Shown: one piece after another, positions 6,245 through 53,324 of the stretch
Numbering within the stretch: position 1 is the first letter of the stretch
How the letters are laid out: each line of letters opens with the position of its first letter
Source: Candidatus Latescibacterota bacterium
GTDB lineage: Bacteria > Latescibacterota > UBA2968
Length of the DNA: 64,000 bases
Reading direction: 5' to 3'
Assembly (NCBI GenBank): GCA_965205975.1
Contig: OZ242195.1
Location: forward strand, 1,952,001-2,016,000
The notes under the pieces: model-generated
What the model saw: the letters and a program-made list of their open reading frames with translations, nothing else
Told to the model about the DNA's origin: nothing
Databases searched by the model: none
Position numbers and translations under genes: made by a program

Positions 6245-8221
6245 TCACCAGTGATGCACCAGATGCCCTTGCCCAAAGAAAAACAACACATCCACGATAA
6301 AAATCAACCCAATGCCCAGAACATAACCGAGCATCAGCCCCATAAACAAAGGTAGCGATTGGCGATAAAGTCCAATACCGCCAATTTTTAACAAAACGGA
6401 TTTAACCGCCCACGCCACAAAAACAGTAAACACCTGCCGCTGCAAAATACCCGTCGTAAACACCGTCAATCCAATAGGACTCAACGGCCACCACACAAAC
6501 CGATAGCGCAAAAAACTACACACACCTGCGATACTCGCGCCAATACCAAAAAACATCAGCCTCTCCAGACTGATGCCAAAGGGATTTTGCAATTTCATCA
6601 CCACATTGCTAAAAATCACCACATTCCCGGAATTAAACGTATAAACATTAAAATTGTACGCACCATACATATAACCCAGATAAAGCGTAAATACCGCCGA
6701 AATAACCAGCGACACCACCAGAGCGCACATCGTCGTCCAGAATAGCGAACGGGTCTTGAGCTTGAGCCTTGCCCCCATCTGCGCGATATGAGCCAGCGTA
6801 GCAGCGCCAAAAGTATTACCCAAGCCAAACGTCGAATAAGACAGCGCCAGAGACGCGGCACTATTGGTATCCATCTGCCGAATACCAATCGTATAAAAAG
6901 TAAAACTCTGAGGCGTAATAGGCATCCGCGCATAAGCCAATCCCGACTCAGCCACAAACCGCGTCACACCCACCGTCATCAAAATCAGTGCAAAAAGAAA
7001 AACACCGGCCACGAGCGCGGACATGCCCGAATGCCACAACCAGAAAAAGAGAAAAGCCGCCCCCACAATAATCCCCCACACCGCCGCCCGATAAGACAAC
7101 AACTCATCCGAATCATCCACCGCATCATCGCCGCGCATCGCCTTGCGCCACACATCCCGCAAATGCGCGCGCGCCATCCACATACTCAATGCCGTAAATA
7201 CAAAAAAAGCCCCCATCGCCTGCCAGCCCAACGCAGCACCACCGCGAGACCCCCAGATATCCGACGCCCCAATAGTATATCCCAAACGGTCAAAAACACC
7301 GGTTTGCACAATACCCAGCGCGTAAAAAAACCACAAACTGAACAACACATCGAGATTGGTAAAAAACGCGAACCCCAGCACAAAAAAATTCAACTTAATC
7401 GTAACACTCGGAAACCCGCGCCCAAGTGGCAAAGCCCATCTATCCATCAACGGAATAGGTGGAAATGTGTGCCAAAAATAACCCACGATATTCCACAACA
7501 CCACAACCACGGGAATGGTCAGTCCAACCCAGAACAGGCGAGAATGCAGGAGCCTGTATTTTCCTGCCCCAACCTCCTCCAACATCGTCAGCGGTGCTTC
7601 AGCCAGGGGAAAAGGCAGGCGTTCTCGATCCACCCACTGCCGCCGCAACACAGCCATCAGCGCCACGCTCACCAGCGCCAGTGCAATGAGAAAAACACCC
7701 CACCACACAAGCGGCGTCATCCACGCATCCCAGGGAATATCAACCCCAGGAGGCTTGCCCTCAAAAAAATACGTCATCTGCCTGGCGTCATTGGGCGGCG
7801 CGGCCCATTTGGGCAACCCATCCAACAAATAATCGCCCCACTGATTCTCGGGCGAGGCATAATAATAAGGCGCGGCAATCCCCCCGATAAACAAACCCAT
7901 AAAATTCGCCGCAGGCACAGCCCCTGCAATCCACCCCATCGAAAAAACCACCACCATCTCGCCCTGCGACAGTGCCCATTGAGGCTTTACCCGCGCCATC
8001 AGAACATTCAACGGCCACGCCAGCACCGTGAAAACCACCATAGTCGCCATGGGCAAATGGGCAAAAACCATACGCGACGAATGCACGATATAGGCCGAAT
8101 AAGCGGGCAACAAATTCACCAGAAACGTCACCGCAATCCCCACGCAAAAAGCGCGTGTGGTCACGCTCAGATGTTTGCTCTCCGGGTGTAAATCCCGATC
8201 CATCGCTTTCAATTCGGCCAT
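6245..8221 (-). CDS. DUF6785/DUF6784-type polytopic membrane protein (OPT-like putative transporter)
   Basis: LRRQWVDRERLPFPL, RFVAESG, RYRFVWWPLSPIG, FMGLMLG motifs; paralog of 51339-53324. Confidence 0.8.
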   Translation of the reverse strand: MAELKAMDRDLHPESKHLSVTTRAFCVGIAVTFLVNLLPAYSAYIVHSSRMVFAHLPMATMVVFTVLAWPLNVLMARVKPQWALSQGEMVVVFSMGWIAGAVPAANFMGLFIGGIAAPYYYASPENQWGDYLLDGLPKWAAPPNDARQMTYFFEGKPPGVDIPWDAWMTPLVWWGVFLIALALVSVALMAVLRRQWVDRERLPFPLAEAPLTMLEEVGAGKYRLLHSRLFWVGLTIPVVVVLWNIVGYFWHTFPPIPLMDRWALPLGRGFPSVTIKLNFFVLGFAFFTNLDVLFSLWFFYALGIVQTGVFDRLGYTIGASDIWGSRGGAALGWQAMGAFFVFTALSMWMARAHLRDVWRKAMRGDDAVDDSDELLSYRAAVWGIIVGAAFLFFWLWHSGMSALVAGVFLFALILMTVGVTRFVAESGLAYARMPITPQSFTFYTIGIRQMDTNSAASLALSYSTFGLGNTFGAATLAHIAQMGARLKLKTRSLFWTTMCALVVSLVISAVFTLYLGYMYGAYNFNVYTFNSGNVVIFSNVVMKLQNPFGISLERLMFFGIGASIAGVCSFLRYRFVWWPLSPIGLTVFTTGILQRQVFTVFVAWAVKSVLLKIGGIGLYRQSLPLFMGLMLGYVLGIGLIFIVDVLFFFGQGHLVHHW

Positions 8222-8240
8222 CGCAATCTCTTAAAAGCAA

Positions 8241-8268
8241 CCACAGATAAACACAGATGAACACAGAG
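8241..8268 (+). repeat. 10-bp-period tandem repeat (ACACAGATRA)x3
   Basis: ccacagataa acacagatga acacagag; its reverse complement resembles 29148-29178. Confidence 0.6.
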
Positions 8269-8458
8269 AGTTGCATTGTTGCTCATCACAAAATCCGTGC
8301 AAGCGTGGTTGTTTTTCGCCTTTCTTTGTGTCCCTTGGTGCTCTTCGTGGATATTGTTGTGCAATGTACCTCAAAAAGAAAGTGTGTGCAAGGAATCCAT
8401 CCCCTGCACACACCGGTTGTGGTTCAGGATCTATCAGCGATCCACTAACAGAACGCTA

Positions 8459-9421
8459 TCAAAACGACCCACTAACAGCAATGCGCAACGGCGGATCGAA
8501 ATACGCGCCGCCATCGCTATACGACAGATCCACGCGGATATCGCGCCCGCCAAAATCGTACTTCAGGCCAGCGCCCAAACTGTAATCCTCCACGTCGTAG
8601 TTGACCTTATATCCACCGCGCAATGCGAGCATATTGGAAATCCAAAGCTCACCGCCAAAATTCCACCGCTGACCGTAATCAGTAGCCATAATGGTCTCGG
8701 CCGCAAGCGTCAAATACGTCGGGTCGCCTTGCTCGCCATAGACCTCACCTGCCAGCCCAAAATTGAAATTGATCGGCGGTGAAAACTGCTCGGTCTCCAC
8801 AGTAATCTCAGTACCCACATTGCGCGCGGCGGCAGCAATGCGCAAACTGCGATAGCCCGTATATGCCGAAATGCCCAGATCAAACTGAAAGGTACTCGTC
8901 GTTTTGAGCACCAGGTCTTCCTGCACCCACCGCGCCTGCACGCCCCAGGACACTTTATCGGTCATCTGACGCGCAAACATAAATCCAATGGCCGTATCGC
9001 CGCCCTGGATCATGCGCCCGGTACCTGTGGCCTGAAAAATCGTCGTTTCCTCCACCTCTTCGGGCACAAAGCTCACAATTGAAACGCCAAACGTATTGCC
9101 GCCCCATTTGTAAGCCAACGCCCCCGAATACAATCCCGAATTGACCAGCCAGCGCGTGTAGGACAGCGCGTATTCACCGCCCGAAACAAATCCCAATGCG
9201 CCGGGATTGTAAAAAGACGCATCAATACCGCCGTTCATAGCGACAAAGGCTTCGCCCATAGCCACGGCACGGGGCGACGCACCGATTTTGAGAAATGCCA
9301 GCGACGACTGGCCCTTCACCGGCAAAATCGTACCGTATTCGCCAAAATCCGACTGTGCAAAGGCCGGTCCTGTCATCAGCCCGACCCCTATAATCAGCAC
9401 CAGTAATATTCGTTTGTTCAT
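8459..9421 (-). CDS. PorV/PorQ-family outer-membrane beta-barrel
   Basis: Signal peptide, FLKIGASPRAVAMGEAFVA...FYNPGAL N-terminal signature, ALRGGY, C-terminal SGSF. Confidence 0.85.
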   Translation of the reverse strand: MNKRILLVLIIGVGLMTGPAFAQSDFGEYGTILPVKGQSSLAFLKIGASPRAVAMGEAFVAMNGGIDASFYNPGALGFVSGGEYALSYTRWLVNSGLYSGALAYKWGGNTFGVSIVSFVPEEVEETTIFQATGTGRMIQGGDTAIGFMFARQMTDKVSWGVQARWVQEDLVLKTTSTFQFDLGISAYTGYRSLRIAAAARNVGTEITVETEQFSPPINFNFGLAGEVYGEQGDPTYLTLAAETIMATDYGQRWNFGGELWISNMLALRGGYKVNYDVEDYSLGAGLKYDFGGRDIRVDLSYSDGGAYFDPPLRIAVSGSF

Positions 9422-9431: not shown

Positions 9432-11807
9432 CTATCTCAAAATGTAAAACGTCCCCGTCACCGTTTGCCCCATACTTTCGGGCGTCAGCGATTCAACGAC
9501 GTAAAAATAAATTCCGCTGGCCACATCCGGTGCAGTCACATTGCGTTCAATTTGAAACCACGATGCCTCGCCTGAACTGGCATCGTCGTGCAGGATTTCA
9601 CCCACAATATCGCCCGCCACATTGAAGATCAACACGCGGCTTTTGGGGGGCAATCCCAGAAAGCGGATCTTTTTTGAACTCTGATAATTATAAGCCGATT
9701 CCGACAAACTGAACGGATTGGGCACCACGCGCACGCGCTTCTCCGGCCAGGACGGTGCCAGCCCCGGCTGAAACGGACTGAGATCCAGATTCACGCGCTG
9801 CTCGGGGGCAGAATATCCACCTTCGAGTCCAGACTGTAAATGCCCCTGTACTTCTGCGGGCAAATCCCCCATGCTCGACATGCCATTGCTCCATGAACTG
9901 CGCGGTTTGGCAAAAGCCCGCACATTGTAAAAGTATCGGAAACCGGCAACTGCTGTATTATCGCGCCACACGTATTGACCGCCCGAATAGTCCCAGGTCG
10001 ATCCGGAGGTACCTGCAGTGACTGTACCGACGTGTTCCCAGGGACCAAATTCCTGATACGCGGATCGGAACACGCGATATCCCACCACATCGGCGTCGCC
10101 AAAATCGGGATGCACCGACGATTCGGCGGCGGCGTCCCAGGTCAATGTAATCTCTGCATCCTGATTCACCCCAGGCGAAAACTTCACATCGGGTGGATAA
10201 TCGGGCAGATCGTACATATTGTCGTACGCGAATTGTGCGGCCTTCAAATGCGCCACAAGAGCAGCTTCTCCCTTGCTCAACCGCGCCAATCGTTCTTCTA
10301 CGGGCAGTGGAATGTCTTTCATACAAAATGCCTGCACATCCACTGCATAAGCCGACTGACCTTCTCGGGATATCGCCTGCGCGCCTGTCCCGGCGACATA
10401 AGCCACCACGATCTTGGCCTTCTCGCCCACAGCCAGATTATACGGCCCAAAAGTGAGTGCATTGGCCATCGCATTGACAATGGTTGGATTGTCATCGGTT
10501 GTTCCCGAAAACGTTTCGTAAATGCCCTGCTCAGAATCGCTCTGCAAATTTGGCAAATCCGTGTTCAAACCCCAGAAATCGCGCGTTTCCCACCACTTTG
10601 ACGTCCTGGGTTGTTCACCTTGCGGATTGACGTATTTGCCCTGATCATTGACATTGAACACATGCGACGGTCCACTATCTCGATAAGCCAATGGTGCAAC
10701 GCCCACGTACTGCGGCGATCTCATTTGCCCGTCGAATACGCCCCCCGGCAACCTCTTCGCATTGCCGTGTACGCTTTCAATATAAACGGGCTGCCCAGTG
10801 TCCTCTTCCGCACGCTGGATACTGTCGCCATCCCATTGATAGTTCATCTTCAAATCGACGTACTCAGCAGGTCCGTCGTAATTTGGCGCACCCGTATAGC
10901 GATATTGATCGTCTTGCGGCTCAAAAGATCCGGGCATGCCAGATCCGATGCTATTCCAATTGCCCTCGCCCGACATGCTCACCGTAAAACCCTGAACAAA
11001 TGCAAAATACGCACCGGTCAGGTTGTGTCCAGCACCGCCGTTCACATCGGCCACACCATCACCATCGGAGTCACCCGTGTTCTCAAATTCCACTTCCAAA
11101 ATGAAGAAATCGTCAAACCCCTGATAACTCCAGGCCATGGCTTTGCGCGTGATGGTAACACCGTGCCTGGTCGTCCACCTGCTAAAAACGATATCTTCTG
11201 CGCGGTCGTCCTTATCGGCGTCCATGTACTGGCCCCACCGATGATTGAGGACCTCATAGGGCACGCCCGTTCTCGGCGCGTCGGTTTGCAATACAGCACC
11301 GGGATACCAGTTGGGCATAATTGCTCCCGCACCCAAGCCATGAGGCGGCACATCAACTTGATATCCCCAATTGGCTTCGGGACTGTTGGCGATATCGTAA
11401 TACATCGGCGCGATATCTGCCGAAGGCGTCCACGGTCCCGAATACGACACGCCGTATTCGCCGCCAACATTGGTCAACACCCATATACCTTCTCCCGCCG
11501 ACAAATTCTGTGCCTCATTTTTTTGCTCGGCCCAGCTAAAACCGTTCTTTTTGCCGAAATACTCAATGTAGTCCGCGCCAGCCATATTGAGCATAAGGCC
11601 ATTGCCCATGCCCGGATACGTCAAGCGCGGCGCGCCGCGAGAACTTCGGTCGTCCCAGACGCCGCCCTGAGTACCTTCATTGCGAAATCCGGTCCAAAGC
11701 TGCCCGCGGGTGAGTTGCCGCATATTCTGCGTGTCCAGGGAATAGACCTCAAACGCCCACCCCACAACCACTATCATCAGGACAGCAGCGAGAAATTTCC
11801 TGTTCAT
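9432..11807 (-). CDS. Secreted protein with FN3-like domain and T9SS-type-A-like C-terminal domain
   Basis: Start moved to MNRKFL (GGAGG RBS). Signal peptide; ITLTWD...GYRVFRS...YFYNVRAF (FN3); VRVVPNPF...IFNVAGD...ASGIYFYVVES...GTFYILR CTD. Confidence 0.8.
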   Translation of the reverse strand: MNRKFLAAVLMIVVVGWAFEVYSLDTQNMRQLTRGQLWTGFRNEGTQGGVWDDRSSRGAPRLTYPGMGNGLMLNMAGADYIEYFGKKNGFSWAEQKNEAQNLSAGEGIWVLTNVGGEYGVSYSGPWTPSADIAPMYYDIANSPEANWGYQVDVPPHGLGAGAIMPNWYPGAVLQTDAPRTGVPYEVLNHRWGQYMDADKDDRAEDIVFSRWTTRHGVTITRKAMAWSYQGFDDFFILEVEFENTGDSDGDGVADVNGGAGHNLTGAYFAFVQGFTVSMSGEGNWNSIGSGMPGSFEPQDDQYRYTGAPNYDGPAEYVDLKMNYQWDGDSIQRAEEDTGQPVYIESVHGNAKRLPGGVFDGQMRSPQYVGVAPLAYRDSGPSHVFNVNDQGKYVNPQGEQPRTSKWWETRDFWGLNTDLPNLQSDSEQGIYETFSGTTDDNPTIVNAMANALTFGPYNLAVGEKAKIVVAYVAGTGAQAISREGQSAYAVDVQAFCMKDIPLPVEERLARLSKGEAALVAHLKAAQFAYDNMYDLPDYPPDVKFSPGVNQDAEITLTWDAAAESSVHPDFGDADVVGYRVFRSAYQEFGPWEHVGTVTAGTSGSTWDYSGGQYVWRDNTAVAGFRYFYNVRAFAKPRSSWSNGMSSMGDLPAEVQGHLQSGLEGGYSAPEQRVNLDLSPFQPGLAPSWPEKRVRVVPNPFSLSESAYNYQSSKKIRFLGLPPKSRVLIFNVAGDIVGEILHDDASSGEASWFQIERNVTAPDVASGIYFYVVESLTPESMGQTVTGTFYILR

Positions 11808-11825: not shown

Positions 11826-14800
11826 TCAAAACTGAATTTCCAGACCGATTTCCAATTCGCGCGGCTGGTACCTGTAGCGCGTGGCTTCGTTTGGATCACC
11901 ATAAAGCAAATACTCGGTATCATCTGGCGGGGGTAGCCGCAGCCCGTACTGTATATACGTGAAATCAGAATTTCGGCTCTCCGTACTCTTTTCATTGAAC
12001 AAATTGCTCACCTCCACAAATAACGTGGGGCGCAAATTGCCAATGGCTCGAAAATCTTTGGCTGCGTACAGATCCGTCTTCATCACCGGTGTTCCGGTGC
12101 GAAATTCGCGCGGGCCAACCGGGGGAACGTACTCAAACGGCGCGCCGCTGAAAATGCGGTAGATCATGCTCACGCGCAGACCGCCAAACGGATTTATCGC
12201 ACCCATTTTGGGACCATAAGCCATCGGCGTGGCATAATACAACTGAAGCGACAACTGATTCCTGCGTTGTCCACTGGTAGGCTCAGCAGAAAAAACCTGC
12301 CCATTTGAAGCTGTCCAGATACCGTTCTCATTGGTTTTAATAGGCGGCTGCCACGGACCAGCACCCGGTCCCTGTGCCCCGGCCTGCTCGGTCCACGACA
12401 CGATATTTGCCTCGGCTTTCGCGCTGATGTCAGCCACTTGCTCAGACGTAAGCGGCACGGGCCTTTCCGAACCATCGGATTGCACTTCCCAATCGGTCCA
12501 ATAATGTCCAGCACTAATAAAATCGGCATCGGGAAGTACATACCAGTTTGCCGAATGTTTGCCGTAGTGAATGCCGCCCGGATCGCGCACCCATTCGGCA
12601 TTGTAGGACAGATTGAACTGGAAATTATTGCTAAACGTCTTTTTTAGCGACAATTCGAGACCGCGCGCTGTTTGCCAATAGGTATTGCGTATGGCGTTAA
12701 CCTGTGAGGATTGACCAGTGAGGGGATCTACCCAATAAGAAATATTGTTGCTGGCGTACAACCCCTCGTCGCGCCGATAGTGCGCTGTAATACTGGCCGT
12801 ATAATCGGCCACAAAATTCCAATCCACCCCTATTTCCATACTCGTCGTACGCTGGGGTTTCATGCCATCGGATGGCTGCCGCGCTGTGGTATGTACTTCC
12901 ATAGCATTCCACTTTTCGGTCTCATCGATCATGCCATTCCCATTGAGATCGTTATCTGGCGCCTCGCTTGAAAACTGCCTGCGATGGGTTTCGAGAAGCA
13001 CGGGAAAGACATTCGACCGACCGATAAAATAGTGCGCCGCCAGGCGGTCTGTAATCGGATGTGACAGACCCACGCGCGGACTCAATGCCGTCATCGTTGG
13101 CGTCGAACTATCGAGATGATCCATTTCATACCGCGCCCGCGTAAACGTGCTGTACATCGGCGATTTGCCCAGTGCCTCTCCCATTGAGCCATTGCGCCCA
13201 AAATTGTAATAATCCCAGCGCAAACCCAGGTTGGCAACCAGACCCCCGTACTCGATCTTATCCTGCACATACAGATTCAGCGTCCACGGTTTCACATTTT
13301 TGCCCAACTCAAAACCATCGGCCACAAACTCGAGAAAGCGGCTCTTGGTATTGGCAAAATTTTCGTGCGTGCGGTGATACGCCCGCTGCGTGAGCACCAA
13401 TCCCGTCTGAATCAAGTGCGATCGATTGACCTGGCTCACAAAATCGTATTTAATGCCGTATTTTATATCTTCTTCTTCGGTGTATTGGCGCAACAGCGTG
13501 GGCAAATTGAAAAAACCCGCCTTATCTTTCCGCAAGGCTTCGGTAGCATCCGGCACATCGAACGTATCGCGATCGTACTTGTTATAGAAAAACTTCAGAT
13601 CGTAATACGTATTTTTGCCCAATGTATGCGTCAGCGTCAATATCTGAAGTTGCCGGGACAATGTATAAGTGCCCGAAGCTGAAAAATCTTCGGGAAAGAA
13701 AATATTTTGTGCATTATTGCGCGTCGATCCCTGAAACTGATCCGACCGTTGATACATCCCCAGTGCTTTAACCTTGATATCTGCACCGGGCCGATACGTC
13801 AATGTCGCCTGCATTCGCGGCGGATCGTCCGACACCTGTTCAGCCGCCGGAAACCTGGCTGGGCTGCGCGCATAACTCAAACTGGCAAAAAACGAAAAAT
13901 CGCGTGCGAGCGGTCCACCCAGTGTACCTTCCAGACGGTGTCCGATATTATCCGTATAATCAACGCGCTCGTGCGCCATGCGCTCGACATCATCAGACGT
14001 CCCCAGGGTGCGATCCGGTCCCGGATCCATATATGTTTCGTTCACCCAATCGGGATTGTCCCACTGCACATTGTCTTCAAATCCGGGGCTTTCATAAACA
14101 TCTCGACCCCAGTGTTTTTTCCCCGAAGGCGTGAACTTATACTCCACCCGTCCAGAGAAATCGCCCCGGCCCTCTCTTGTCACCAGACTCACAATGCCAG
14201 CACCCGCATTGCCAAATTCCGCATTCATACCCCCGGTCAGCACACTCAATTCCTGAATAGCCGTGGTATTCACGCCTGTGAGCAAGCTTCTATCGACCTC
14301 AATCCCATCGATATAATAGCCCACCTGCGTACCCGTTTGCGCCCGCGTCGTGCTTCCGCGAATGCGGTTGGTGCCATCCAGCGCCATCCCCGGTTGCAAC
14401 GCGATCAATTGCGATGTCGATCTCACCTGTGGCACAGCCTGAATATCTGCCGAAGAAACCACATATTTGCTCGTGGTTTTATCTGGCTCCACAGGCGGAC
14501 GCTCCGCAACAACAATTAGTTCAGCCAATTCCAGACTGGCCTCTTTCAGTGCAAAATTCACCGTAGATGTATAATCCACAATCACCTGCACGGCCTCTTT
14601 CTTTTCTGTGCCATAGCCTACCATCGTCGCCGTAAGGGTGTACATTCCGGGATCTACAGCCAGAATTAAATAGCGGCCCTCGGCATCGGTAGTAGCTCCT
14701 TTGCGGGTCCCTTCGAGCGCCACATTGGCCCCCGGCAAAGACTCACCCGTGGCGGCATCTGTGATGACACCCGTGATTTTACCCGCTGTTGTCGCCATGG

Positions 14801-14852
14801 CCGATGTACCCATCAGCAACAACAAAATAAATCCCAATATTAACCGCTTCAT
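11826..14852 (-). CDS. TonB-dependent receptor (carboxypeptidase-reg-like N-domain, plug, barrel)
   Basis: Start at MKRLIL. GKITGVITD..TGESLPGANV, IRGS, GGMNAEFGNA, YVQDKIEY, SPRVGLSHPI, C-terminal F. Confidence 0.93.
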   Translation of the reverse strand: MKRLILGFILLLLMGTSAMATTAGKITGVITDAATGESLPGANVALEGTRKGATTDAEGRYLILAVDPGMYTLTATMVGYGTEKKEAVQVIVDYTSTVNFALKEASLELAELIVVAERPPVEPDKTTSKYVVSSADIQAVPQVRSTSQLIALQPGMALDGTNRIRGSTTRAQTGTQVGYYIDGIEVDRSLLTGVNTTAIQELSVLTGGMNAEFGNAGAGIVSLVTREGRGDFSGRVEYKFTPSGKKHWGRDVYESPGFEDNVQWDNPDWVNETYMDPGPDRTLGTSDDVERMAHERVDYTDNIGHRLEGTLGGPLARDFSFFASLSYARSPARFPAAEQVSDDPPRMQATLTYRPGADIKVKALGMYQRSDQFQGSTRNNAQNIFFPEDFSASGTYTLSRQLQILTLTHTLGKNTYYDLKFFYNKYDRDTFDVPDATEALRKDKAGFFNLPTLLRQYTEEEDIKYGIKYDFVSQVNRSHLIQTGLVLTQRAYHRTHENFANTKSRFLEFVADGFELGKNVKPWTLNLYVQDKIEYGGLVANLGLRWDYYNFGRNGSMGEALGKSPMYSTFTRARYEMDHLDSSTPTMTALSPRVGLSHPITDRLAAHYFIGRSNVFPVLLETHRRQFSSEAPDNDLNGNGMIDETEKWNAMEVHTTARQPSDGMKPQRTTSMEIGVDWNFVADYTASITAHYRRDEGLYASNNISYWVDPLTGQSSQVNAIRNTYWQTARGLELSLKKTFSNNFQFNLSYNAEWVRDPGGIHYGKHSANWYVLPDADFISAGHYWTDWEVQSDGSERPVPLTSEQVADISAKAEANIVSWTEQAGAQGPGAGPWQPPIKTNENGIWTASNGQVFSAEPTSGQRRNQLSLQLYYATPMAYGPKMGAINPFGGLRVSMIYRIFSGAPFEYVPPVGPREFRTGTPVMKTDLYAAKDFRAIGNLRPTLFVEVSNLFNEKSTESRNSDFTYIQYGLRLPPPDDTEYLLYGDPNEATRYRYQPRELEIGLEIQF

Positions 14853-24197: not shown

Positions 24198-24320
24198 CGC
24201 AAACCTCCTGTCTTCCGGTCAACGGTCAGTAGCCAGCCTTGTTCCCGTCCCCTTCTTCCAATTTTTAATTCCTAATGAACTGGTCTGAACAGCGACCAGT
24301 TGTACATCACTCCCTAATTT

Positions 24321-25628: not shown

Positions 25629-25736
25629 GATATGATCCTCCTTTTTACAGTATGCATTGTTCTTGACGACAACGCCCTACTACCCGATTATTATAGAACG
25701 AACTTGCTTTATCAGTCAATCTCCATGGAGCTTTCA

Positions 25737-26639: not shown

Positions 26640-26644
26640 AACGC

Positions 26645-32765: not shown

Positions 32766-32774
32766 TACAAGACC

Positions 32775-33947: not shown

Positions 33948-33948
33948 T

Positions 33949-42566: not shown

Positions 42567-42601
42567 AGTGATTACAATATGTCGGACAGAATTCATTTCG
42601 C

Positions 42602-42630
42602 TTGCATTTGAAAATCAAGTTCCTTAATAT
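42602..42630 (+). promoter_or_regulatory. Sigma70-type promoter of the second TBDR operon
   Basis: TTGCAT-17-TAATAT followed by a very AT-rich leader and GGAGG RBS. Confidence 0.55.
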
Positions 42631-42712
42631 ATTAAAGTAAAATATTTTATTTTTTAAATAAGTTTTAAAATTATAGAACAAAATAAAAAATAATATCATA
42701 TAGGGAGGTCAA

Positions 42713-43411: not shown

Positions 43412-43423
43412 GGAGAGCCGCGA

Positions 43424-46400
43424 ATGAAACGAATCGTTATGATTTTCACACTTCTGTGTTTAGCCTCTCACCTCCAGGCAGGCACCACGGGTAAAATCGC
43501 TGGTATCATCAAAGACGATCGGGGCAATCCGCTTCCCGGCACTAATGTAATCGTAGAAGGCACGCGACTCGGTGCTGTGGCAGATGCCGACGGCAGCTAT
43601 TTTATCATCAATATCCTGCCGGGAAGATACACACTCACGGCCTCGCTTATCGGATATACCAATCAAACCCAGAGCGATGTATCGGTCAAAACGGATTTCA
43701 CCACGCCTCTCAACTTTGAACTCAAAGAAACCACAGTCGAATTAGCCGAGCTCACAGTCGTGGCCGAACGCCCACCCGTGGAAAAAGACAAAACCACGAG
43801 CAAATACATCATGGGCGGTGATGCGATTGATCGGCTATCTACAGCGGCAAATACCTCAGAACTCATGAGCCTTCAGGCCGGTGTCTCTCTCGACAACAAC
43901 GAACCCGCCATTCGCGGCAGCTATCAGGGCAACCGCGGCACCTCGGAAACACTTGTCTATGTGGATGGCGTTGTCATGGATGCGGGCACTGCCCGGGGCG
44001 ACGTTCAATTTGTCGGTGTCAACAGTGCCGCCGTGCAAGAAATTACCGTCATCACTGGCGGAATGGAGGCCGAATACGGCAATGCCACATCCGGTGCCAT
44101 TCACATCATCACCCGCGAAGGCGGCAAAAATTTTCACGGCAAGAGCCGCCTCACCTATATTCCGCCCGGCAAAAAACACTGGGGTGGCAATGTCTATGAC
44201 AGTCCCATCCACAAAGGCAGAATGAAATGGGGCGATGCGACCTGGGAAAATGAAACATACACAGACCCCGGTCCAGACCGCCAGATGGGAACGGGCGACG
44301 ACATCACCCGCCTGGCGCACGAGCGCACGGACTATACCGGCATTCACGGTTATGAAGTCGATGGGGCTCTCTCGGGTCCATTGCTGGGAAATGCTTCCTT
44401 TTTTGTCACCGCACAGCACGAGGGGCAAGCCTCGCATTTTCCCTCCCCCACCAAACGCGGCATCTTCCATCAGGCCGTCTCAACATCTCCACAAACCGCC
44501 CGCTGGATCGAATCGCCCTACAACATCAAAGGCACCTACAAGCTGGGATGGGATGTACAATCCAACATAAAGGTTAAAGTCGGTGGGGTTTATGCACGCC
44601 ACGAAGCCTATCAAGTTGGCGAGGGTGAAAGCTGGGTACAGGGCGTCAAACGCACCGTTGGTCGAGAACTTCAGGGCATCGACATTTTCCTGCCCGCAGA
44701 AGAAGCTGGCGCGGGCATCGCCAACGTCAAACACGACCTGGCATACATATCCCTCACGCATACCCTGAGCAACAAAACTTTTTACGAAGCCCGGCTATCC
44801 TATTACCGGGACGCCACGGACACGACCAATGTGCCCGGTGTCACCAGCCAATTTGGCGGCGGCATTACAGAACCGCTCAGAAAAGATCAGGACGGGGTAT
44901 TCACCATTGGCCCCAGGCGGGTCTCCATCTGGATCAACGACCATCGCGCCCGCCTCAACTTCAAACTCGATTATTCCAGCCAGATCAACAAGAACCACTT
45001 CATCAAAACCGGCATTGACCTGACGCGACACACCTACTGGTGGAACCAGATCAACTGGCCTCAGGCGGGCAAATCGCGCTATCAGCTCGCGGGCGTGCCC
45101 TACGAAATGGGCGAACCCATTAACCCCATCCAATCCGCCTTCTACCTCCAGGACAAAATGGAATTCGAAGGCATCATCGTCAACCTGGGCATCCGCTACG
45201 ACAGACATGACCACAATGGCGATTTTTACTCTCCACTTGCCAACAATGCCTGGGGCGGAGCCCCCATGACCAACTCGTGGTCGCGACAGCGCAAATTTAT
45301 GCCGCGCACCTCTGTATCGACCAAATCGGCATGGAGTCCTCGCCTGGGTGTTTCACACCCCATTACGGCCAGTGCCATCATTCGATTTTCCTACGGTATC
45401 TTTCACCAGATGCCCGGATTCTGGCACCTCTATTCCTATGAATGGCGCGGCGTTGCCCCTCCCGAAGACTTCAACAACAATGGACAGATCGACGATACCG
45501 AATGGCTGAACAAAAACAACCAGCGAGCCACTACGGGCAACCCCCATCTCGACTACAAACGCTCCACCAATTTCGAGGTGGGTACAGACTGGAACTTCTA
45601 TCAGGATTATGTCCTGAGCTTTACGACTTATCAGCAAAGTGTAGATGGTCAGGTTCGATTTGGCAATGCCCTGTGGCGAGATCCCAGTCGCAAAAGTCAG
45701 GTGGGGCGCAACACACCGCTGGGCTATGTCTTTACAGACAATCGCGGATTTGAAATGAGCCTGCGAAAGGACTTCAGCCAGAACTTCTCCTTCCAGGTCG
45801 CGTACAACCACCAGTGGCAGTCGGGAGGTAATGCGGGAATCAACCGGATTATTTACTTCCCCAACTCGCAATTTGTCGCATCCGATCTCTATTTCGTCCA
45901 GCACACCAAAGACACCAATGGCGATGGCGTAGTCAATGCCAGCGACGACGGTTCAGAAGCAAAAGTGCCGCTCACATCGCAGCAGATTCAGGACATCGGT
46001 GCCGAGGCAGACCGCTATATCCAGACCATCCGAGAAGGCACCAACCCAGACTGGAATCCGCTGACCGACAGCGAGATTCAGGAAGTGGAAAATCTTCCAG
46101 GCGTCTTTTACTTCACCCGCAACACCACCTCTGATCGCAGTGCGGGTCGCGGGGGCCGCGCAGAAACCGCTGGTTTTGGCGACCGACGCGGCACCATGAA
46201 AATCGCGTTTACGTATGAAACGCCAATGCATTACGGCCCAGCCCTCGGCGGCTTCAGACTCAATTTGATCAACACCTTGAAAACGGGACGCCGAATCAGC
46301 ATTCCGCATCCCACACAGGGCAATGTCGAGCGATTTGGACCTATGGAAACCAAGACCCACCTGTCTTTGGAAAAACGCTTCCGCACAGGTCGAACCGAAG

Positions 46401-46645
46401 CCACCCTGTTTATGAACGTGTACAACTTCTTCAACCAGCGCGACCCGGCCACCGAATATTTCTGGCGCGGTCCCTGGTTTGATCGACACAATCAGGGCCC
46501 ACAGGCCGAACTCTGGTATCTCTACGGCATGGACATGCCCAAACCCACGGACAACAATTATATCCAATACGGCGATACCAAAGAATACCACCGCTGGGCA
46601 GGACGACCTCGAGAGATCAGCGTAGGTCTCCAGCTCGGATTTTAA
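43424..46645 (+). CDS. TonB-dependent receptor
   Basis: GTTGKIAG, IRGS, TGGMEAEYGNA.SG, YLQDKMEF, SPRLGVSHPI, C-terminal F. Confidence 0.93.
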   Translation: MKRIVMIFTLLCLASHLQAGTTGKIAGIIKDDRGNPLPGTNVIVEGTRLGAVADADGSYFIINILPGRYTLTASLIGYTNQTQSDVSVKTDFTTPLNFELKETTVELAELTVVAERPPVEKDKTTSKYIMGGDAIDRLSTAANTSELMSLQAGVSLDNNEPAIRGSYQGNRGTSETLVYVDGVVMDAGTARGDVQFVGVNSAAVQEITVITGGMEAEYGNATSGAIHIITREGGKNFHGKSRLTYIPPGKKHWGGNVYDSPIHKGRMKWGDATWENETYTDPGPDRQMGTGDDITRLAHERTDYTGIHGYEVDGALSGPLLGNASFFVTAQHEGQASHFPSPTKRGIFHQAVSTSPQTARWIESPYNIKGTYKLGWDVQSNIKVKVGGVYARHEAYQVGEGESWVQGVKRTVGRELQGIDIFLPAEEAGAGIANVKHDLAYISLTHTLSNKTFYEARLSYYRDATDTTNVPGVTSQFGGGITEPLRKDQDGVFTIGPRRVSIWINDHRARLNFKLDYSSQINKNHFIKTGIDLTRHTYWWNQINWPQAGKSRYQLAGVPYEMGEPINPIQSAFYLQDKMEFEGIIVNLGIRYDRHDHNGDFYSPLANNAWGGAPMTNSWSRQRKFMPRTSVSTKSAWSPRLGVSHPITASAIIRFSYGIFHQMPGFWHLYSYEWRGVAPPEDFNNNGQIDDTEWLNKNNQRATTGNPHLDYKRSTNFEVGTDWNFYQDYVLSFTTYQQSVDGQVRFGNALWRDPSRKSQVGRNTPLGYVFTDNRGFEMSLRKDFSQNFSFQVAYNHQWQSGGNAGINRIIYFPNSQFVASDLYFVQHTKDTNGDGVVNASDDGSEAKVPLTSQQIQDIGAEADRYIQTIREGTNPDWNPLTDSEIQEVENLPGVFYFTRNTTSDRSAGRGGRAETAGFGDRRGTMKIAFTYETPMHYGPALGGFRLNLINTLKTGRRISIPHPTQGNVERFGPMETKTHLSLEKRFRTGRTEATLFMNVYNFFNQRDPATEYFWRGPWFDRHNQGPQAELWYLYGMDMPKPTDNNYIQYGDTKEYHRWAGRPREISVGLQLGF

Positions 46646-46660
46646 CTGAGGAGCAATAAC

Positions 46661-48970
46661 ATGTATCCATTGAAACACATCGGATGGATGGGCGTTCTAT
46701 GCGTACTGATATTTGCATCCGAAATCTATGCCCAGCAACCCGAACTTCAACGCCACTTGACCCGGGGCAAGCTCTGGGCCACCTTTCGCAATACTGGCAC
46801 CCAGGGCCTGCGCGACGACAGCCGCCTGGGCGCAGATGCCGGCTTGATGTATCCCGGCTGGGGCATTGGGGAACGCGATTTTACCGAATACTGGATCATT
46901 GGGCAGGACAACGACCACCGCTATCACACCAGCCAGGGCGAGGGTTTTTGGGTTTTTACCAGAGAAGGTGGATCATATAATGTATCCACCTCCAACCCAC
47001 GCTACAATACCGACGACATCTTTGAAATGATCTACGATGCCGCTTCGGGTCCAGAGCGCGATCTGGGCGTTGAAACCCGGTCGTTCCTCACGGGCAATAC
47101 CACGGCCAATTACTGGCCAGGAGCACCTGCACTGGTGGCCGACGAACCCATCGAAATCCACAATTACGATTACGGACGTTACATTCCCAACGACAACGAG
47201 GCCGAAGAAATCATCATCTCCAAATGGACGACAGAACGCGGCCTCACCATTACCCGCAAAGCCAGAGCGTGGAGCTATCCGGACTACGACGACTTTATTA
47301 TTCTCGAAGTCATCATCGAAAACACCGGAGATAACAACGGAGACGGCATACCCGATGCAGGGCTACCCGTTGATCACCAGGATGTCTATTTCGCCTTTGT
47401 GAATAACCTGGCCCCATCGTGGGCCGGACACCGCTGGCAAAACCAGACTGTACCGTGGGCGTATTCCGACCCGATCATCCTGGACGATTGGTACAAATAC
47501 AGCGAAGCATCCAATTTCGATGGCTTGCCCGCACTTCGGGGGAAAAAAATCTCTTATGTTTATGACAGCGATCTGCTCTCTTCTTCCGGAGACGACACGG
47601 GCCAGCCTTTCGATAAGAACAACGCCCAGGCAGCCTATATCAACCGGGGCCAGCTCAACCACGGTGAACTCATGGCTTTCCAGTACATCGGCCTGGCACC
47701 CCTCGACTACGACCCCACCGACGGGTTCACCAACGACACCGAGACCTACGTGGCCCCCAAAACAATGGACCAGCCCGCCTTCGCCAACTGGTGGGAGATC
47801 TTCGGGCGCTTCGATTGGGACACGCCAGACATTACCAATCTGAATAGCGACGAGAACCTCTACAATGAATTTATTGGTTTGGGTAGAGTTCCAGCCGATC
47901 AACCCAACCCCGACCATATCAGCCGCGTAACCTTCGCACATACTTATGGACCTTATGATCTGGCTCCCGGAGAAAAAGCCAAAGTCGTGGTCGCCTGGGT
48001 CGCCGGATCGGGTGCTGAATTTGCCGGTCCCGGCGGCAGTCCCATGGATGTTTACGAATGGGCGCGCCAGGGCAACCAGAGCCAGGTAGCCGACGGCGAA
48101 CGCGCGATGGCACAACATCTGGAACGCGCGCAATTTGCCTACGACAACAATTACGACCTGCCAGACGCGCCTCCCGATGTTGCCGTATTTGTAGATAGCG
48201 ACGAAAACGGGAACAACGCCATCACCTGGTCTGACCGAGCAGAAAAGTCCCCTGACCCGGATTACACGGGCGATGAAGCCCTGGATGTGCAGGGCTACCG
48301 GGTCTATCGCACCCAAAACAACCATCTGGGACCCTGGGAACTCGTGGCCGATATCCCCAGGGGAACTACCCCGACCAACACGGAGTATGCCCCCAGCACG
48401 CCCTGGACTTCTCCCACGATCTCCTACGCCGATGGGGGAACCTACACCTATCGAGACGTAAATTCAGTGCCTGGTTTCAGATACTGGTATTCGGTGCGCA
48501 CGTACGATTCCGGGCACAGCGACTGGAACGGCACAGGCCGATCCATTCCATCTCTGGAATCCGGGCACAGTGCACCGGAACAGCGCATGAATGTTTCGAG
48601 AAGCCCCATTGTGATTGCAACCGCTGAAAAAGACGCGCTAGCCGAACAGGTGCGCGTGGTACCCAATCCTTTTCGAGACGATCCGGGAGACGCCGATCAC
48701 CGGTATCCACCCGCCAGCAACAATATTCGCTTTGTCAATATTCCCCGAAAGGCCAAAATCTCCATCTTTTCTATCTCCGGAGATCTAATCGCCGTCATCA
48801 ATCACCCGCAACGCGCCACCGACCCCGATAGGGGCGAAGCCACCTGGGATCAGCGCACGCGCACATTTTCCGGGCGCGTCGCCGCCGGACGCTATTACTA
48901 TGTGGTAGAATCTCTGGTTGCTGGTGAAACGGGCAAAAAGCAAACCGGGATGTTTATGATCATCAAATAG
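46661..48970 (+). CDS. Secreted protein with FN3-like domain and T9SS-type-A-like CTD
   Basis: Signal peptide; GYRVYR...YWYSVRTYD; VRVVPNPF...IFSISGDLI...ATWD...AAGRYYYVVES...FMIIK; paralog of 9432-11807. Confidence 0.8.
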   Translation: MYPLKHIGWMGVLCVLIFASEIYAQQPELQRHLTRGKLWATFRNTGTQGLRDDSRLGADAGLMYPGWGIGERDFTEYWIIGQDNDHRYHTSQGEGFWVFTREGGSYNVSTSNPRYNTDDIFEMIYDAASGPERDLGVETRSFLTGNTTANYWPGAPALVADEPIEIHNYDYGRYIPNDNEAEEIIISKWTTERGLTITRKARAWSYPDYDDFIILEVIIENTGDNNGDGIPDAGLPVDHQDVYFAFVNNLAPSWAGHRWQNQTVPWAYSDPIILDDWYKYSEASNFDGLPALRGKKISYVYDSDLLSSSGDDTGQPFDKNNAQAAYINRGQLNHGELMAFQYIGLAPLDYDPTDGFTNDTETYVAPKTMDQPAFANWWEIFGRFDWDTPDITNLNSDENLYNEFIGLGRVPADQPNPDHISRVTFAHTYGPYDLAPGEKAKVVVAWVAGSGAEFAGPGGSPMDVYEWARQGNQSQVADGERAMAQHLERAQFAYDNNYDLPDAPPDVAVFVDSDENGNNAITWSDRAEKSPDPDYTGDEALDVQGYRVYRTQNNHLGPWELVADIPRGTTPTNTEYAPSTPWTSPTISYADGGTYTYRDVNSVPGFRYWYSVRTYDSGHSDWNGTGRSIPSLESGHSAPEQRMNVSRSPIVIATAEKDALAEQVRVVPNPFRDDPGDADHRYPPASNNIRFVNIPRKAKISIFSISGDLIAVINHPQRATDPDRGEATWDQRTRTFSGRVAAGRYYYVVESLVAGETGKKQTGMFMIIK

Positions 48971-48986
48971 TACAAAGGAGATACAC

Positions 48987-49928
48987 GTGAAACGCTTACA
49001 AACAACGCTCATCCTGGTCTTCACTGCCTTTGTCCTATCGGCAACAGGCGCAGAAGCCGGGTTAAAAAAACTCGGCAATGCCGGGTTCACCTTCCTCAAA
49101 GTCTCTCAAAGCGCGCGCGCAGTTGCTATGGGCGATGCTTACACCGCAGTGGGCACAGGTGTCGATGCCATGTTCTGGAATCCAGCGGGCATCACGCAAA
49201 TCAATCGCGCCGCTTTTAGCCTGGGATACAACAACTGGATGGTCAATTCCCAATTTTATTCAGGTGCATTTGCCTATAATTTGGGAACACAGGCCATAGG
49301 CATCACGGTCTTGTCTTTCACACCCGATGAATTTGAAGAAACCACCATTTTTCAGCCCAATGGCACGGGCAATATCATTAAAGACAGCGACTTTGCTGTT
49401 GGCCTGACCTATGCCATCAAATTCACCGACAGATTGTCATTTGGCGCCCAGGGCAGATATATTCGAGAGACGCTCTATACCGATGTCAACAGCGGCCTGG
49501 ATATCTCGATAGGCACGCTCTTTTACACCGGATTCCGCTCTTTGCGACTGGCCATGACACTAAAGAATTTCGGACAGGATATCGTCATTATCGATGACAC
49601 AGCCTTCCGCCCCCTCATCTACAGCATCGCGGCTTCAATGGAACTCTACGGCAATCTGGGCGATCCAGTTTCACTTACCGTAGCTGCGGAGAATGCCTTT
49701 TTTGTGGATTTCGAAGGCCGCATTCACACAGGCGCCGAACTCTGGTTGCACAATATTCTCGCACTGCGCGGCGGCTGGAAATTCAACAACGACACCGAGA
49801 GTTTTGCCCTGGGATTTGGCCTCAAATACGCGCTCAATGAGCGTCCCTTTACCCTGGACTTTGCGTATAGCGATATGGGAGAGCTATTGGACCCCACCTA
49901 TCGGATAACCATTGGCGGTTCCTTCTAA
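48987..49928 (+). CDS. PorV/PorQ-family outer-membrane beta-barrel
   Basis: FLKVSQSARAVAMGDAYTA...FWNPAGI, ALRGGW, C-terminal GGSF. Confidence 0.87.
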   Translation: MKRLQTTLILVFTAFVLSATGAEAGLKKLGNAGFTFLKVSQSARAVAMGDAYTAVGTGVDAMFWNPAGITQINRAAFSLGYNNWMVNSQFYSGAFAYNLGTQAIGITVLSFTPDEFEETTIFQPNGTGNIIKDSDFAVGLTYAIKFTDRLSFGAQGRYIRETLYTDVNSGLDISIGTLFYTGFRSLRLAMTLKNFGQDIVIIDDTAFRPLIYSIAASMELYGNLGDPVSLTVAAENAFFVDFEGRIHTGAELWLHNILALRGGWKFNNDTESFALGFGLKYALNERPFTLDFAYSDMGELLDPTYRITIGGSF

Positions 49929-49942
49929 GAAGCGGTCGCGAT

Positions 49943-51322
49943 ATGAAACAGGTCCTTTTGTCGCTGTGTCTCGCGCTGGCTCTCATCGCACCAATTTCAG
50001 GCGAAGATATCCCCGTTATGGCACAGGGAGCCATCCCATTTTGGGTCGATAGAGCTGGGTTTTATGCGCCAGACAGCCTGAACTATGGCGAACTATATCT
50101 CCAATGCCTTTGCCAGCACCTCACATTTAAAGAATCAAATGACCGCCAACGGGCCACCTACCGCGTAGAAGCAACCTTTTACACCGAGCGCGATACCATT
50201 CCCTTCAAATGGGAAAAACAGATTGTCACAGGCGTGGGAATAGATCTGCGCGACCAAATGATTACAGAGGCGTTGCGCTTCAGAATCGCTCCCGGCACCT
50301 ACCGGGGTCGCGTTCGCCTGAAAGATTTGCAGGCCAATGCTGAAGGCACCTGTGAACTTGCCTTTACAATGCCCGAATTTGACAGCGCCGCCTTGATCAT
50401 GAGCGACATCCAGTTTGCCCATCGAATTGACGCCGAGAACTCACAGACCAGCAGCAGCCTGGTCAAAAATGGGTTCAAAATCATTCCCAATACGCGCAGG
50501 TCAATAGACACGACCTTAAACATCTACTTTGAACTGTATGGCCTTGCCGAAGGCGAGGGACGCGCTGCAACTTTTGACCTCGCCTATACCCTCCTGGATA
50601 CCGCGGGACAGCGGATCAAAAACTTTCCCTCAGCGCGCTACCGCAAACCCGGCACAACTGCAATTAAAACCGAATCTCTCGATCTCAAAGGTGTACCGCC
50701 AGGGCATTATGTACTGCAAATCACTACCCGCGATAATGGCACTGGCAAAATGACCACGCGCCAGAGAACCTTTTCAATTGTAGATGTGCAAAAACCCACA
50801 CTGGCAACAGACCCCGCCTCTTTAAAACGCTATTACAAACAAATCCGCTACATCGCCACAAAAGCTGAACGAGAAACCTATGCCTCCTTGAGCACGGCCG
50901 AGAAAGTGAAATTTATTCTCTCTTTCTGGAAAAAACATGATCCAACGCCTCTAACGCCCGAAAATGAATTTGCCACCGAACATTTCAAGCGCATCCGCTA
51001 TGCAGACGAACGCTTCTCTGCGCGTCCAGGACAAAAGGGATCGGATACCGATCAGGGGCGCATCCACATCAAGTATGGCCTGCCAACAGACATTGAGCGC
51101 AGTCCGTTTAGTGCTACCGGCAAAGCTTTTGAAATTTGGACCTACGAACACCTCAACTACTACGAGTTTGTATTTCTGGATCGCCTCGGAGATGGCGTTT
51201 ATGAAATGATCCACGCCACCATGCCAGGAGAACGCTACAACCCCAACTGGCGAGACGAACAAGCCATCGGTGACCAAACCGACCCCACATCGCTGCCATC
51301 TGAGGCATATTCTCCGCCATAA
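49943..51322 (+). CDS. GWxTD-domain-like secreted protein
   Basis: Signal peptide; MSDIQ, FW...DP.P.TPENE, R..YA...F, GSDTDQGRIHIKYGLP, EIW.Y. Confidence 0.82.
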   Translation: MKQVLLSLCLALALIAPISGEDIPVMAQGAIPFWVDRAGFYAPDSLNYGELYLQCLCQHLTFKESNDRQRATYRVEATFYTERDTIPFKWEKQIVTGVGIDLRDQMITEALRFRIAPGTYRGRVRLKDLQANAEGTCELAFTMPEFDSAALIMSDIQFAHRIDAENSQTSSSLVKNGFKIIPNTRRSIDTTLNIYFELYGLAEGEGRAATFDLAYTLLDTAGQRIKNFPSARYRKPGTTAIKTESLDLKGVPPGHYVLQITTRDNGTGKMTTRQRTFSIVDVQKPTLATDPASLKRYYKQIRYIATKAERETYASLSTAEKVKFILSFWKKHDPTPLTPENEFATEHFKRIRYADERFSARPGQKGSDTDQGRIHIKYGLPTDIERSPFSATGKAFEIWTYEHLNYYEFVFLDRLGDGVYEMIHATMPGERYNPNWRDEQAIGDQTDPTSLPSEAYSPP

Positions 51323-51338
51323 GCAATCGATCAAACCT

Positions 51339-53324
51339 ATGGCAAAAACGCCAGTCTCTCAATACAAATCAGAATACCTGTCCAAACCCAAGACAAGTGG
51401 CGTAAGCCTTCGCGCCATTGTATTGGGTCTCGCGCTCGTTGTCCTGATCAACCTCTGGATGCCCTATTCAGAGTACATCGTGCGGGCATCGCGCATGAAC
51501 CTCAGTCACTTTCCGGTCGCAGTATTCATCCTCTTTCTCCTCATACGCTACCTGCTCACCCCCCTACTATCAGCCTGGAACCCCACCCTTCTTTTAACCC
51601 CTTCTGAACAGTTCGTCATCATTGCAATGGGACTTGCAGGTGGTGTCGTGCCCGGATCAGGTGTACTCGGTTTTCTCTTTGGGACCATTGCTACCCCGTA
51701 TTATTTTGCCACGCCAGAAAACCGCTGGGCGGACTTCTTTCACGCCCACCTTTCCACCTATTTGGTACCCCCCAATACCAACGGCGCAATGCGCGATTTT
51801 TACGAAGGCGCACTGCCCGGCACGCCAATCCCCTGGTCTATATGGGGCGCACCCCTTTTTTGGTGGCTTGTTTTCATCGCCGCCATTGTCTTTGTTTCGG
51901 CCTGTATTGCAGTTATCTTGCGCCGCCAGTGGTCTGAAAATGAACGTCTGGCATTTCCTCTGTTAAGTCCGACCCTGCATATTGTTTCTCCAGAACAAAC
52001 ACGCGATAACCCCTTGCAGTACAGAGGTCTCTACTGGGCGGGATTCGCTCTTTCCTCTGGCATTCTCGCCTGGAATATTCTCCATTTCTTCTGGCCTATC
52101 GTGCCCGATATTAAACTGACACTTCCCTTTTTTTATTTCGCCAAAGGTTATCCCCCTATCTTTCCCCGGTTCAATATTTACGTCATGGGATTTGCCTATT
52201 TTGCCAACCTCGACGTGCTTTTCAGCATGTGGTTCTTCCATCTCCTTTTTTACCAAATCCCAGGTGGCCTCTTAAATCGCATTGGATTTGACATGTCCGG
52301 CCGCGGCGACCCTTATGGTGCGCTTCACTTTTCCGGCGCGGGCTGGTTGTGTTTTGGCGCTCTGTGTTTTTTCGTTTTTTGGGGATTGTATATCTCTCGC
52401 CATCACCTCAAAGCAGTCCTTCTCAAAGCCATCAATCCACAACACCCCATTGACGACACCCGGGAACTCTTATCTTACCGCACCGCTATTTTAGGACTAC
52501 TTATTGGAACAATTTTTATTTTTTTTTGGTTGTATCAATCCGGCATGGCCCCCTCAACAATCGCCTTTTACATTGTAACCACCTTTGTCATTTACGTAGG
52601 CGTGGCGCGTGTCGTCGCGCAAACTGGCATCCTTTTTGTGCAAGCCCCAATCAGCGCACAGGTTTTCACCATTTATTCTCTGGGCGCACACGCCCTTTCG
52701 ATGCCCACGATGACATCGCTCGCCCTCTCCTACGCACTCACCAATTATATTCGCGGTCTGTTTATGCCCGCATTAATCCATATCGCCAAACTATCCGAAT
52801 GGATCAAAGCCGACCACCGCAAACTTTTAGGCGCGGTCTTTTTGGGATTAGTCGTCGGCTGTCTGGCGTTTATTGTATATGTCATACCCCTAGGTTATGA
52901 AAGGGGAGCTTTCAATTTTAACGACATTCCGCTCAAATCGGGTATCAATCGGATCTATCCGGTGATTCTCAGCAAAATTGTCAATCCCTTTGATCCCGAC
53001 TGGCAAAGACTGGGCTTTTTTGGCGGCGGTGCAGCATTGATGGGATGCCTCACATTCTTACAATATCGCTTTCCCTGGTGGCCCCTGCACCCCATTGGCC
53101 TGACTGTTTGCAGCACCAATGTCGCCCGCAGCAATCAGGTCTCTATTTTTATTATTTGGGCATTCAAATTGTTCGTACTGCATTTTGGCGGTGTCTCTGC
53201 TTATCGTCGTTTTCAGCCCTTCTTTATTGGCCTGCTTACCGGTTATGGCCTGGGAGTCGCGCTGTCTTTTATTGTCGATGCCCTGTGGTTTTCCGGTCAG
53301 GGACATTACGTACACAGGTGGTAA
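51339..53324 (+). CDS. DUF6785/DUF6784-type polytopic membrane protein
   Basis: LRRQWSENERLAFPL, RVVAQTG, RFPWWPLHPIG, FFIGL..G, C-terminal HRW. Confidence 0.8.
   Translation: MAKTPVSQYKSEYLSKPKTSGVSLRAIVLGLALVVLINLWMPYSEYIVRASRMNLSHFPVAVFILFLLIRYLLTPLLSAWNPTLLLTPSEQFVIIAMGLAGGVVPGSGVLGFLFGTIATPYYFATPENRWADFFHAHLSTYLVPPNTNGAMRDFYEGALPGTPIPWSIWGAPLFWWLVFIAAIVFVSACIAVILRRQWSENERLAFPLLSPTLHIVSPEQTRDNPLQYRGLYWAGFALSSGILAWNILHFFWPIVPDIKLTLPFFYFAKGYPPIFPRFNIYVMGFAYFANLDVLFSMWFFHLLFYQIPGGLLNRIGFDMSGRGDPYGALHFSGAGWLCFGALCFFVFWGLYISRHHLKAVLLKAINPQHPIDDTRELLSYRTAILGLLIGTIFIFFWLYQSGMAPSTIAFYIVTTFVIYVGVARVVAQTGILFVQAPISAQVFTIYSLGAHALSMPTMTSLALSYALTNYIRGLFMPALIHIAKLSEWIKADHRKLLGAVFLGLVVGCLAFIVYVIPLGYERGAFNFNDIPLKSGINRIYPVILSKIVNPFDPDWQRLGFFGGGAALMGCLTFLQYRFPWWPLHPIGLTVCSTNVARSNQVSIFIIWAFKLFVLHFGGVSAYRRFQPFFIGLLTGYGLGVALSFIVDALWFSGQGHYVHRW

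Follow-up and report, generated by a model that had tools for sequence, protein, structure and literature searches.

Two oppositely oriented operons, A on the minus strand and B on the plus strand, lie in a 64,000-nucleotide stretch of the genome of Candidatus Latescibacterota bacterium (the window; GenBank assembly GCA_965205975.1, contig OZ242195.1, positions 1,952,001 to 2,016,000). Both combine genes for outer-membrane proteins with a gene whose product ends in a C-terminal domain (CTD) related to those of type IX secretion systems (T9SS). In operon A, a small outer-membrane beta-barrel (14873..15565; PF13505, 30 bits against a Pfam cut-off of 28.7) is followed by a TonB-dependent receptor (11826..14852, the likely start within a reading frame listed from 14942), the CTD protein (9432..11807), a PorV/PorQ-family barrel (8459..9421) and a multi-pass DUF6785/DUF6784 membrane protein (6245..8221; Pfam 376 bits). 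Operon B encodes the corresponding small barrel (42713..43411; PF13505 by Pfam), receptor (43424..46645), CTD protein (46661..48970), PorV/PorQ-family barrel (48987..49928) and DUF6785/DUF6784 protein (51270..53324, likely start 51339; 353 bits). These open reading frames lie where the original prediction, made from the letters alone, had placed them. Its observation of five homologous genes in a common order is borne out, with pairwise identities, gene by gene, of 31, 35, 37, 42 and 38% (E 1e-38 or lower). The four motifs quoted for the CTD proteins and the one quoted for the receptors are likewise present in both copies. The count of five genes per operon omitted a gene of operon B, which encodes a GWxTD-domain protein (49943..51322; TIGR04514, 99 bits) between the barrel and the DUF6785 protein and is kept in close relatives (L001-L012).

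The conserved unit consists of three genes: TonB receptor, CTD protein and PorV/PorQ-family barrel (the triad, or cassette). The source genome (5.56 Mb, one contig, 98% complete) encodes 12 such CTD proteins. Each is directly followed by a PorV/PorQ-family barrel and 11 are preceded by a TonB-dependent receptor, one of these 11 being split over two frames. As had been anticipated, the gene order is kept elsewhere. Where the CTD protein is complete and both its neighbours can be read, receptor, CTD protein and barrel follow one another in 73/77 cases in a first locus set (L001-076, mostly close kin and hence not independent), in 110/131 in a second (L107-226, 120 regions chosen for upstream room from about 300 best listed matches) and in 59/59 in a third (L227-306, from metagenomes, found with proteins named Ignavibacteria by NCBI). 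Loci L077-106 have short flanks and were excluded from these counts.

The CTD-protein family is present in 106 of 121 genomes of its own phylum and in 111 of 114 genomes of a second phylum, which includes a KSB1-labelled genome. The closest public relatives share 88-97% identity over the CTD protein and carry a Latescibacterota label. NCBI labels were rejected as proof of many phyla: records named KSB1, Caldithrix sp. and Cytophagia all fall in one phylum set, and a "Gemmatimonas" record belongs to the window's own class (G199 = G003). WOR-3 names also occur among homologues, as homology only.

The three core proteins diverge together. Among ten paralogous triads their distances co-vary (rho 0.64-0.81, P < 0.001), and the same five-member group and one pair are common to the trees of all three. 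A CTD protein and its barrel have also been duplicated together without a receptor, over 3.8 kb at 95% identity. The proposed pairing of each barrel with its own CTD protein is supported by this co-divergence and joint duplication. The duplicates lie at G000:C1:3026838-3030620 and 5091808-5095594; their barrels are identical, and the first copy's receptor reads in two frames, with a break near residue 405-445. A coupling analysis of CTD protein and barrel gave no signal, its top value being 8.3 against 8.5-11.2 with shuffled pairing, from too few data (160 paired sequences, effectively about 130) to speak for or against a contact. In some loci a second, longer PorV-like barrel of about 500 residues follows the first (L179, L183, L186, L194, L201-L217). 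Arrays of two to six CTD proteins occur at L147, L207, L221 and L226, some ordered as receptor, barrel and CTD proteins.

The proposal of a five-gene module fails on the DUF6785 protein. The genome holds 35 DUF6785 genes, nine of them no further than 13 kb downstream from a CTD protein and 26 away from cassettes, and the cassette-linked copies form no clade. On the DUF6785 tree the cassette-linked labels need 7 changes, compared with 8.1 when shuffled (117/500 as low), and the copies of operons A and B are not sisters, being split by a 99/96 branch. With cassette-linked copies so scattered, DUF6785 was rejected as a core gene; it is a frequent neighbour, recruited repeatedly beside cassettes. 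It follows the triad in 55/73, 3/110 (with about 3.5 kb downstream fetched) and 0/59 cases in the three sets. In the source genome it is enriched after cassettes (7 of 12 CTD proteins, 0.45 expected), as would be expected of an inner-membrane transporter in a utilisation locus. About 10-11 hydrophobic segments (about 11 in copy A, by a simple scan) and this context make such a transporter the likely identity. Look-alikes in the Atlas are mostly from Armatimonadota; one largely archaeal cluster, 11% of it with the OPT transporter family, offers a lead. Dozens of TPR/GWxTD-like proteins are encoded in the genome, often adjoining DUF6785 paralogues.

The triad unit also appears to close at the PorV-like barrel. 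In operon A, a 238-base gap separates the barrel and DUF6785 genes and holds a hairpin of 15 pairs with a T run (8381..8414, minus strand), a putative terminator at the end of a four-gene unit and the strongest such site within 2-17 kb. The same stem with its T run is read after the barrel gene in L072, L075 and L076. Judged by eye, a hairpin with a T run lies 3' of 8 of the 12 cassette barrel genes, that of operon A included and that of operon B not. Promoter-like sites in the same 2-17 kb were fewer than in shuffled sequence (10 observed, 15.6 in shuffles). Between 21 and 29% of sampled words of 42600-52500, counted over that stretch as a whole, occur in five sponge-metagenome runs labelled RNA from two studies; another 13 RNA rows, whose shares are small, carry no weight as evidence.

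One cassette subfamily carries the small barrel as an accessory. This barrel lies upstream of the triad in 53/68, 7/92 and 0/46 cases in the three sets, and all six copies in the genome stand directly before a cassette receptor. The receptor motif G.KHWG occurs in 21 of 28 small-barrel triads, compared with 9 of 132 others. In many of the loci L228-L305 and L169-L177 a small-barrel homologue lies two genes past the PorV-like gene, behind an unannotated gene of 240-275 residues. The receptors themselves match the plug PF07715 above cut-off and the barrel in part (TIGR01782 at 571-745 in receptor B); a TonB-box-like stretch and a terminal Phe were read by eye. Receptor A, which also matches PF13620/PF13715, has an N-terminal extension, the TonB-box-like stretch, the plug and a predicted barrel with the terminal Phe. 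A receptor barrel and an N-domain taken together measure at least 1083 residues, the smallest sum among 160 triads.

The CTD protein has no Pfam family in either operon, and a sequence search of solved structures found no match for its N-domain. An AlphaFold2 model of copy B, built with 150 sequences (predicted local distance difference test 94.6; predicted template modelling score 0.94), resolves three domains behind a signal peptide read by eye: a beta-supersandwich (residues 26-498), a fibronectin type III (FnIII) domain (about 509-625; Fn3 match 3MPC, E 2e-4) and a T9SS-type CTD (655-769, bases 48623-48967). The supersandwich is best matched by the N-domain of glucoamylase 1LF6 (Z 18.6, root-mean-square deviation (rmsd) 2.9, 232 aligned), at the head of a group of N-terminal domains of glucoamylase, glucodextranase and GH94 phosphorylases (Z 18.6-17.8, 9-10% identity). 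Such a shared fold shows no function. A lipobox-like pattern occurs in just 4 of 160 CTD proteins. At E 1e-30 the family comprises 923 clusters (50% identity); at E 1e-10 there are 4084, a count that will include tail-only matches.

The tail is homologous to T9SS CTDs. In the model it matches the PorZ CTD 5M11 (Z 12.4, rmsd 2.2, 91 aligned, 25% identity; Foldseek rank 2), in agreement with the fold foreseen for the C-terminus, and the tail profile matches the genome's ordinary CTDs at 96.9%. It is nevertheless a distinct CTD subtype, which the genome's other proteins lack: the cassette-tail profile scores 77-132 bits for the 12 cassette proteins (112 for copy A) and no more than 28 for every other protein, and PF18962 matches nine other places. 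G707, conserved in 160/160, is the likely counterpart of the export glycine described in PMC11285876. Among 100 tails, matches at E 0.05 or better are mostly weak (PorZ model 69, TIGR04183 63, PF13585 48, TIGR04131 1). The window's two CTD proteins match neither PF18962 nor TIGR04183 and carry Thr or Met in place of the near-terminal Lys of type A; this Lys is retained in 117 of 132 triads without a small barrel. A type B identity was rejected, the matches being weak. When CTD protein B was compared with TIGR04131 and PF13585, its tail reached 15 bits against a cut-off of 27, and the adjoining barrel is of the PorV/PorQ rather than the PorP/SprF kind.

The barrels belong to the PorV/PorQ family at large. 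NF033709 scores 143-190 bits (cut-off 90) in 11/11 distinct cassette barrels scanned, including 151 for barrel A and 164 for barrel B. All lie below the equivalog cut-offs for PorV (37-74 bits, cut-off 250) and PorQ (52-109 bits, cut-off 220), with PorQ scoring above PorV in 8 of 11; barrel A has 59 bits for PorQ and 52 for PorV. A separate PorV candidate outside the cassettes reaches 161 bits to PorV, compared with 37-74 for the cassette barrels. The claim of a private PorV-like barrel per operon stands in this sense. That such a barrel itself secretes the CTD protein is unlikely, because the genome has SprA, the T9SS translocon protein (641 bits, 2091 residues, G000:C1:1640322-1646597). A BamG-like barrel is encoded at G000:C1:1238756-1239919 (144 bits, under the cut-off of 250).

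No SusD, SprA or PorK-N was found among the 43 window proteins scanned, as originally reported; sprA lies outside the window. Across the genome, the suggested check for sprA, porK-N and porU located SprA and a PorU-like protein; of the motor and ring proteins it covered GldM and GldN and found neither, with no positive control. SprA is present in 37 of 38 chosen genomes of both phyla. SusD occurs in 6 of 42 chosen genomes of both phyla, in one to three copies each; the source genome has one, outside the window. SusD is thus rare where the cassette is common.

SusD is the partner lipoprotein of SusC in gut Bacteroides and captures substrate for it. The best explanation of the triad, given a probability of roughly 0.6, is that the barrel holds the CTD protein uncleaved on the cell surface after export by SprA, where it feeds the receptor much as SusD does. 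The steps would be as follows. (i) SprA exports the CTD protein, which is carried out of the channel by its private barrel; this is the most secure step and quite probable. (ii) The barrel then retains the CTD protein on the surface, uncut by PorU, which is somewhat less assured. (iii) The beta-supersandwich would capture the receptor's substrate, which is likely to be a glycan or a derivative of a sugar. Substrate capture is suggested by the fixed position behind the receptor, the scarcity of SusD and the carbohydrate-enzyme type of fold taken together. (iv) Service to the neighbouring receptor ranks between the first two steps in likelihood; direct contact as a lid is a nearly even question that leans towards the negative. 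According to PMC10994853, in Flavobacterium a CTD within SprA binds to loops of its carrier barrel, and the two leave together. In the review PMC10202324, PorZ on PorQ and PorU on PorV are retained CTD proteins, and shielding by cognate barrels is proposed; PorZ on PorQ would serve as a precedent, by analogy, for a retained CTD.

Several observations weigh against this explanation. Co-divergence is already expected from co-inheritance alone. At some loci (L033, L036, L147, L221) a single barrel stands with more than one CTD protein, and one-to-one pairing is therefore not strict. The cassette neighbourhoods of this genome are mixed: some contain sugar enzymes, a sulfatase and transporters, others unrelated genes. 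The near-terminal Lys of type A is kept in just 1 of 28 small-barrel triads; loss of the lysine and G.KHWG mark one lineage in these triads and are therefore not independent events. A profile of ten cassette tails alone matched no CTD structure. The genome's ordinary CTDs match PorU and PorZ too, and this control weakened the idea that the tail's likeness is specific to retained CTDs. A PorU-like protein with a C25 domain, scoring below cut-off, could cut the tail. Finally, in searches with no positive control, GldM exceeded its cut-off in 0/38 genomes and no GldN came up in the source genome; this counts against the proposal because release from SprA in Flavobacterium needs the energy chain of the motor, as PMC10994853 describes it. 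A T9SS without the known motor is possible.

The alternative that survives best, although unlikely, is that the CTD protein is an exported, anchored surface enzyme (a glycosidase, lyase or epimerase) that prepares the substrate, as SusG does. All top fold matches are carbohydrate-active enzymes, and further matches include stand-alone mutarotase-like proteins (Z 12-14) and a GH174 fucanase (Z 13.9). Within the close family, residues D210, D211, E216, D275, D302 and D312 hardly vary, but in a wider alignment of 150 every acidic and His residue of the supersandwich stays below 90% conservation. In the best-matching, glucoamylase-type enzymes the supersandwich is an N-terminal domain placed before the catalytic domain, and the helical catalytic barrel of these enzymes is absent from the CTD protein B model. 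A single partner in fixed position at each receptor is also more SusD-like than the variable enzymes of polysaccharide utilisation loci. It is improbable that CTD protein and barrel form a surface display unit, an adhesin or layer that is only co-regulated with the receptor and has no role in uptake. The CTD-protein arrays and the one duplicated pair that stands without a receptor would suit such a unit; a receptor directly upstream of the CTD protein in 74/78 and 113/131 cases, and its co-divergence with both partners, argue against it. Slightly less probable again is a FadL-like channel or temporary shuttle, with PorU cutting the CTD protein for release or attachment to lipopolysaccharide. 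The PorU-like gene and weak FadL/TodX matches point that way, but the barrel family profile matches PorV (6H3I_F) at E 1e-36 and TodX at 8e-6, and, with a PorV candidate in the genome, a shuttle role hardly accounts for twelve private barrels. Very improbable is that the T9SS lacks the PorLM motor and that the force which releases barrel and cargo from SprA comes from the receptor, under the pull of TonB-ExbBD: SprA occurs without detected GldM in 37/38 genomes and ExbD is present in three copies, but ordinary CTD cargo is encoded far from any cassette receptor, SprA is also found in genomes without a CTD-protein match, and a diverged motor may simply have been missed.

A bolder form of the preferred reading, surface retention of the CTD protein for the receptor, is tentative and on balance doubtful. 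It would have a fixed complex of receptor, lipid-free lid and anchor barrel (with the small barrel in some) replace SusC/SusD as the main high-affinity uptake system in several uncultured phyla related to the Fibrobacteres-Chlorobi-Bacteroidetes group; the tail would be a third kind of T9SS address, intermediate between types A and B, which dedicated barrels of the PorV family would recognise, and the T9SS that exports it would work without the PorLM/KN motor.

Other genes of the window lie between and beside the operons. Between them, at 23409-34677, sulfatases, PhyH dioxygenases, oxidoreductases and a sulfotransferase-like gene form a cluster. On the minus strand, a cohesin/dockerin-like leucine-rich-repeat protein and then a dockerin-like redoxin are encoded at 54768-57505. 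At 60558-63352, also on the minus strand, a BlaI-type repressor stands with a fusion of a BlaR1 M56 peptidase and four TonB C-terminal domains, which is possibly a TonB-linked sensor.

If the preferred reading is correct, SusD-poor lineages would capture substrate at the cell surface by means of T9SS parts in place of lipoproteins. The triad would then be a marker for utilisation loci overlooked by SusC/SusD-based tools, its large CTD-protein family being unnamed in Pfam. With twelve cognate tail-barrel pairs in one genome, carrier choice of CTDs and shielding from PorU become testable by swaps, and the SprA of two phyla, with no motor detected, poses the question of how export is powered there. 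Literature searches for the triad combination or for DUF6785, most subscription journals being outside reach, turned up no description of the triad among the papers listed.

Three known systems are closest. Like SusC/SusD (RagA/RagB), the triad has a large TonB-dependent receptor with an N-terminal extension followed by one partner gene, in many paralogous loci per genome, with transporters and sugar enzymes near some. Unlike SusD, the partner lacks PF07980, is modelled as a beta-supersandwich, has no lipobox in 156/160, and carries a T9SS tail with a barrel gene behind it; the window receptors reach 92 (A) and 66 bits (B) against the SusC model TIGR04056, whose cut-off is 368. With PorQ-PorZ (and PorV-PorU) it shares a PorV-family barrel beside a protein whose CTD is PorZ-like in sequence and model. 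Here, however, twelve paralogous pairs are tied to receptors, the body is a supersandwich, the PorZ match is confined to the tail, and the barrels fall short of the equivalog cut-off for PorQ as well as that for PorV. In type B systems the cargo has a linked private carrier, whereas type A cargo is all said to use PorV, according to PMC12618676; the triad resembles type B CTDs with PorP/SprF in linking a cargo gene to its own carrier, and 48/100 tails match PF13585 weakly. It differs in that the carrier is of the PorV/PorQ family and that 63/100 tails match TIGR04183 and 1/100 TIGR04131. The triad is a widespread, apparently undescribed outer-membrane system of three genes; it would work as SusC/SusD does, using components of the T9SS, and belongs to neither.

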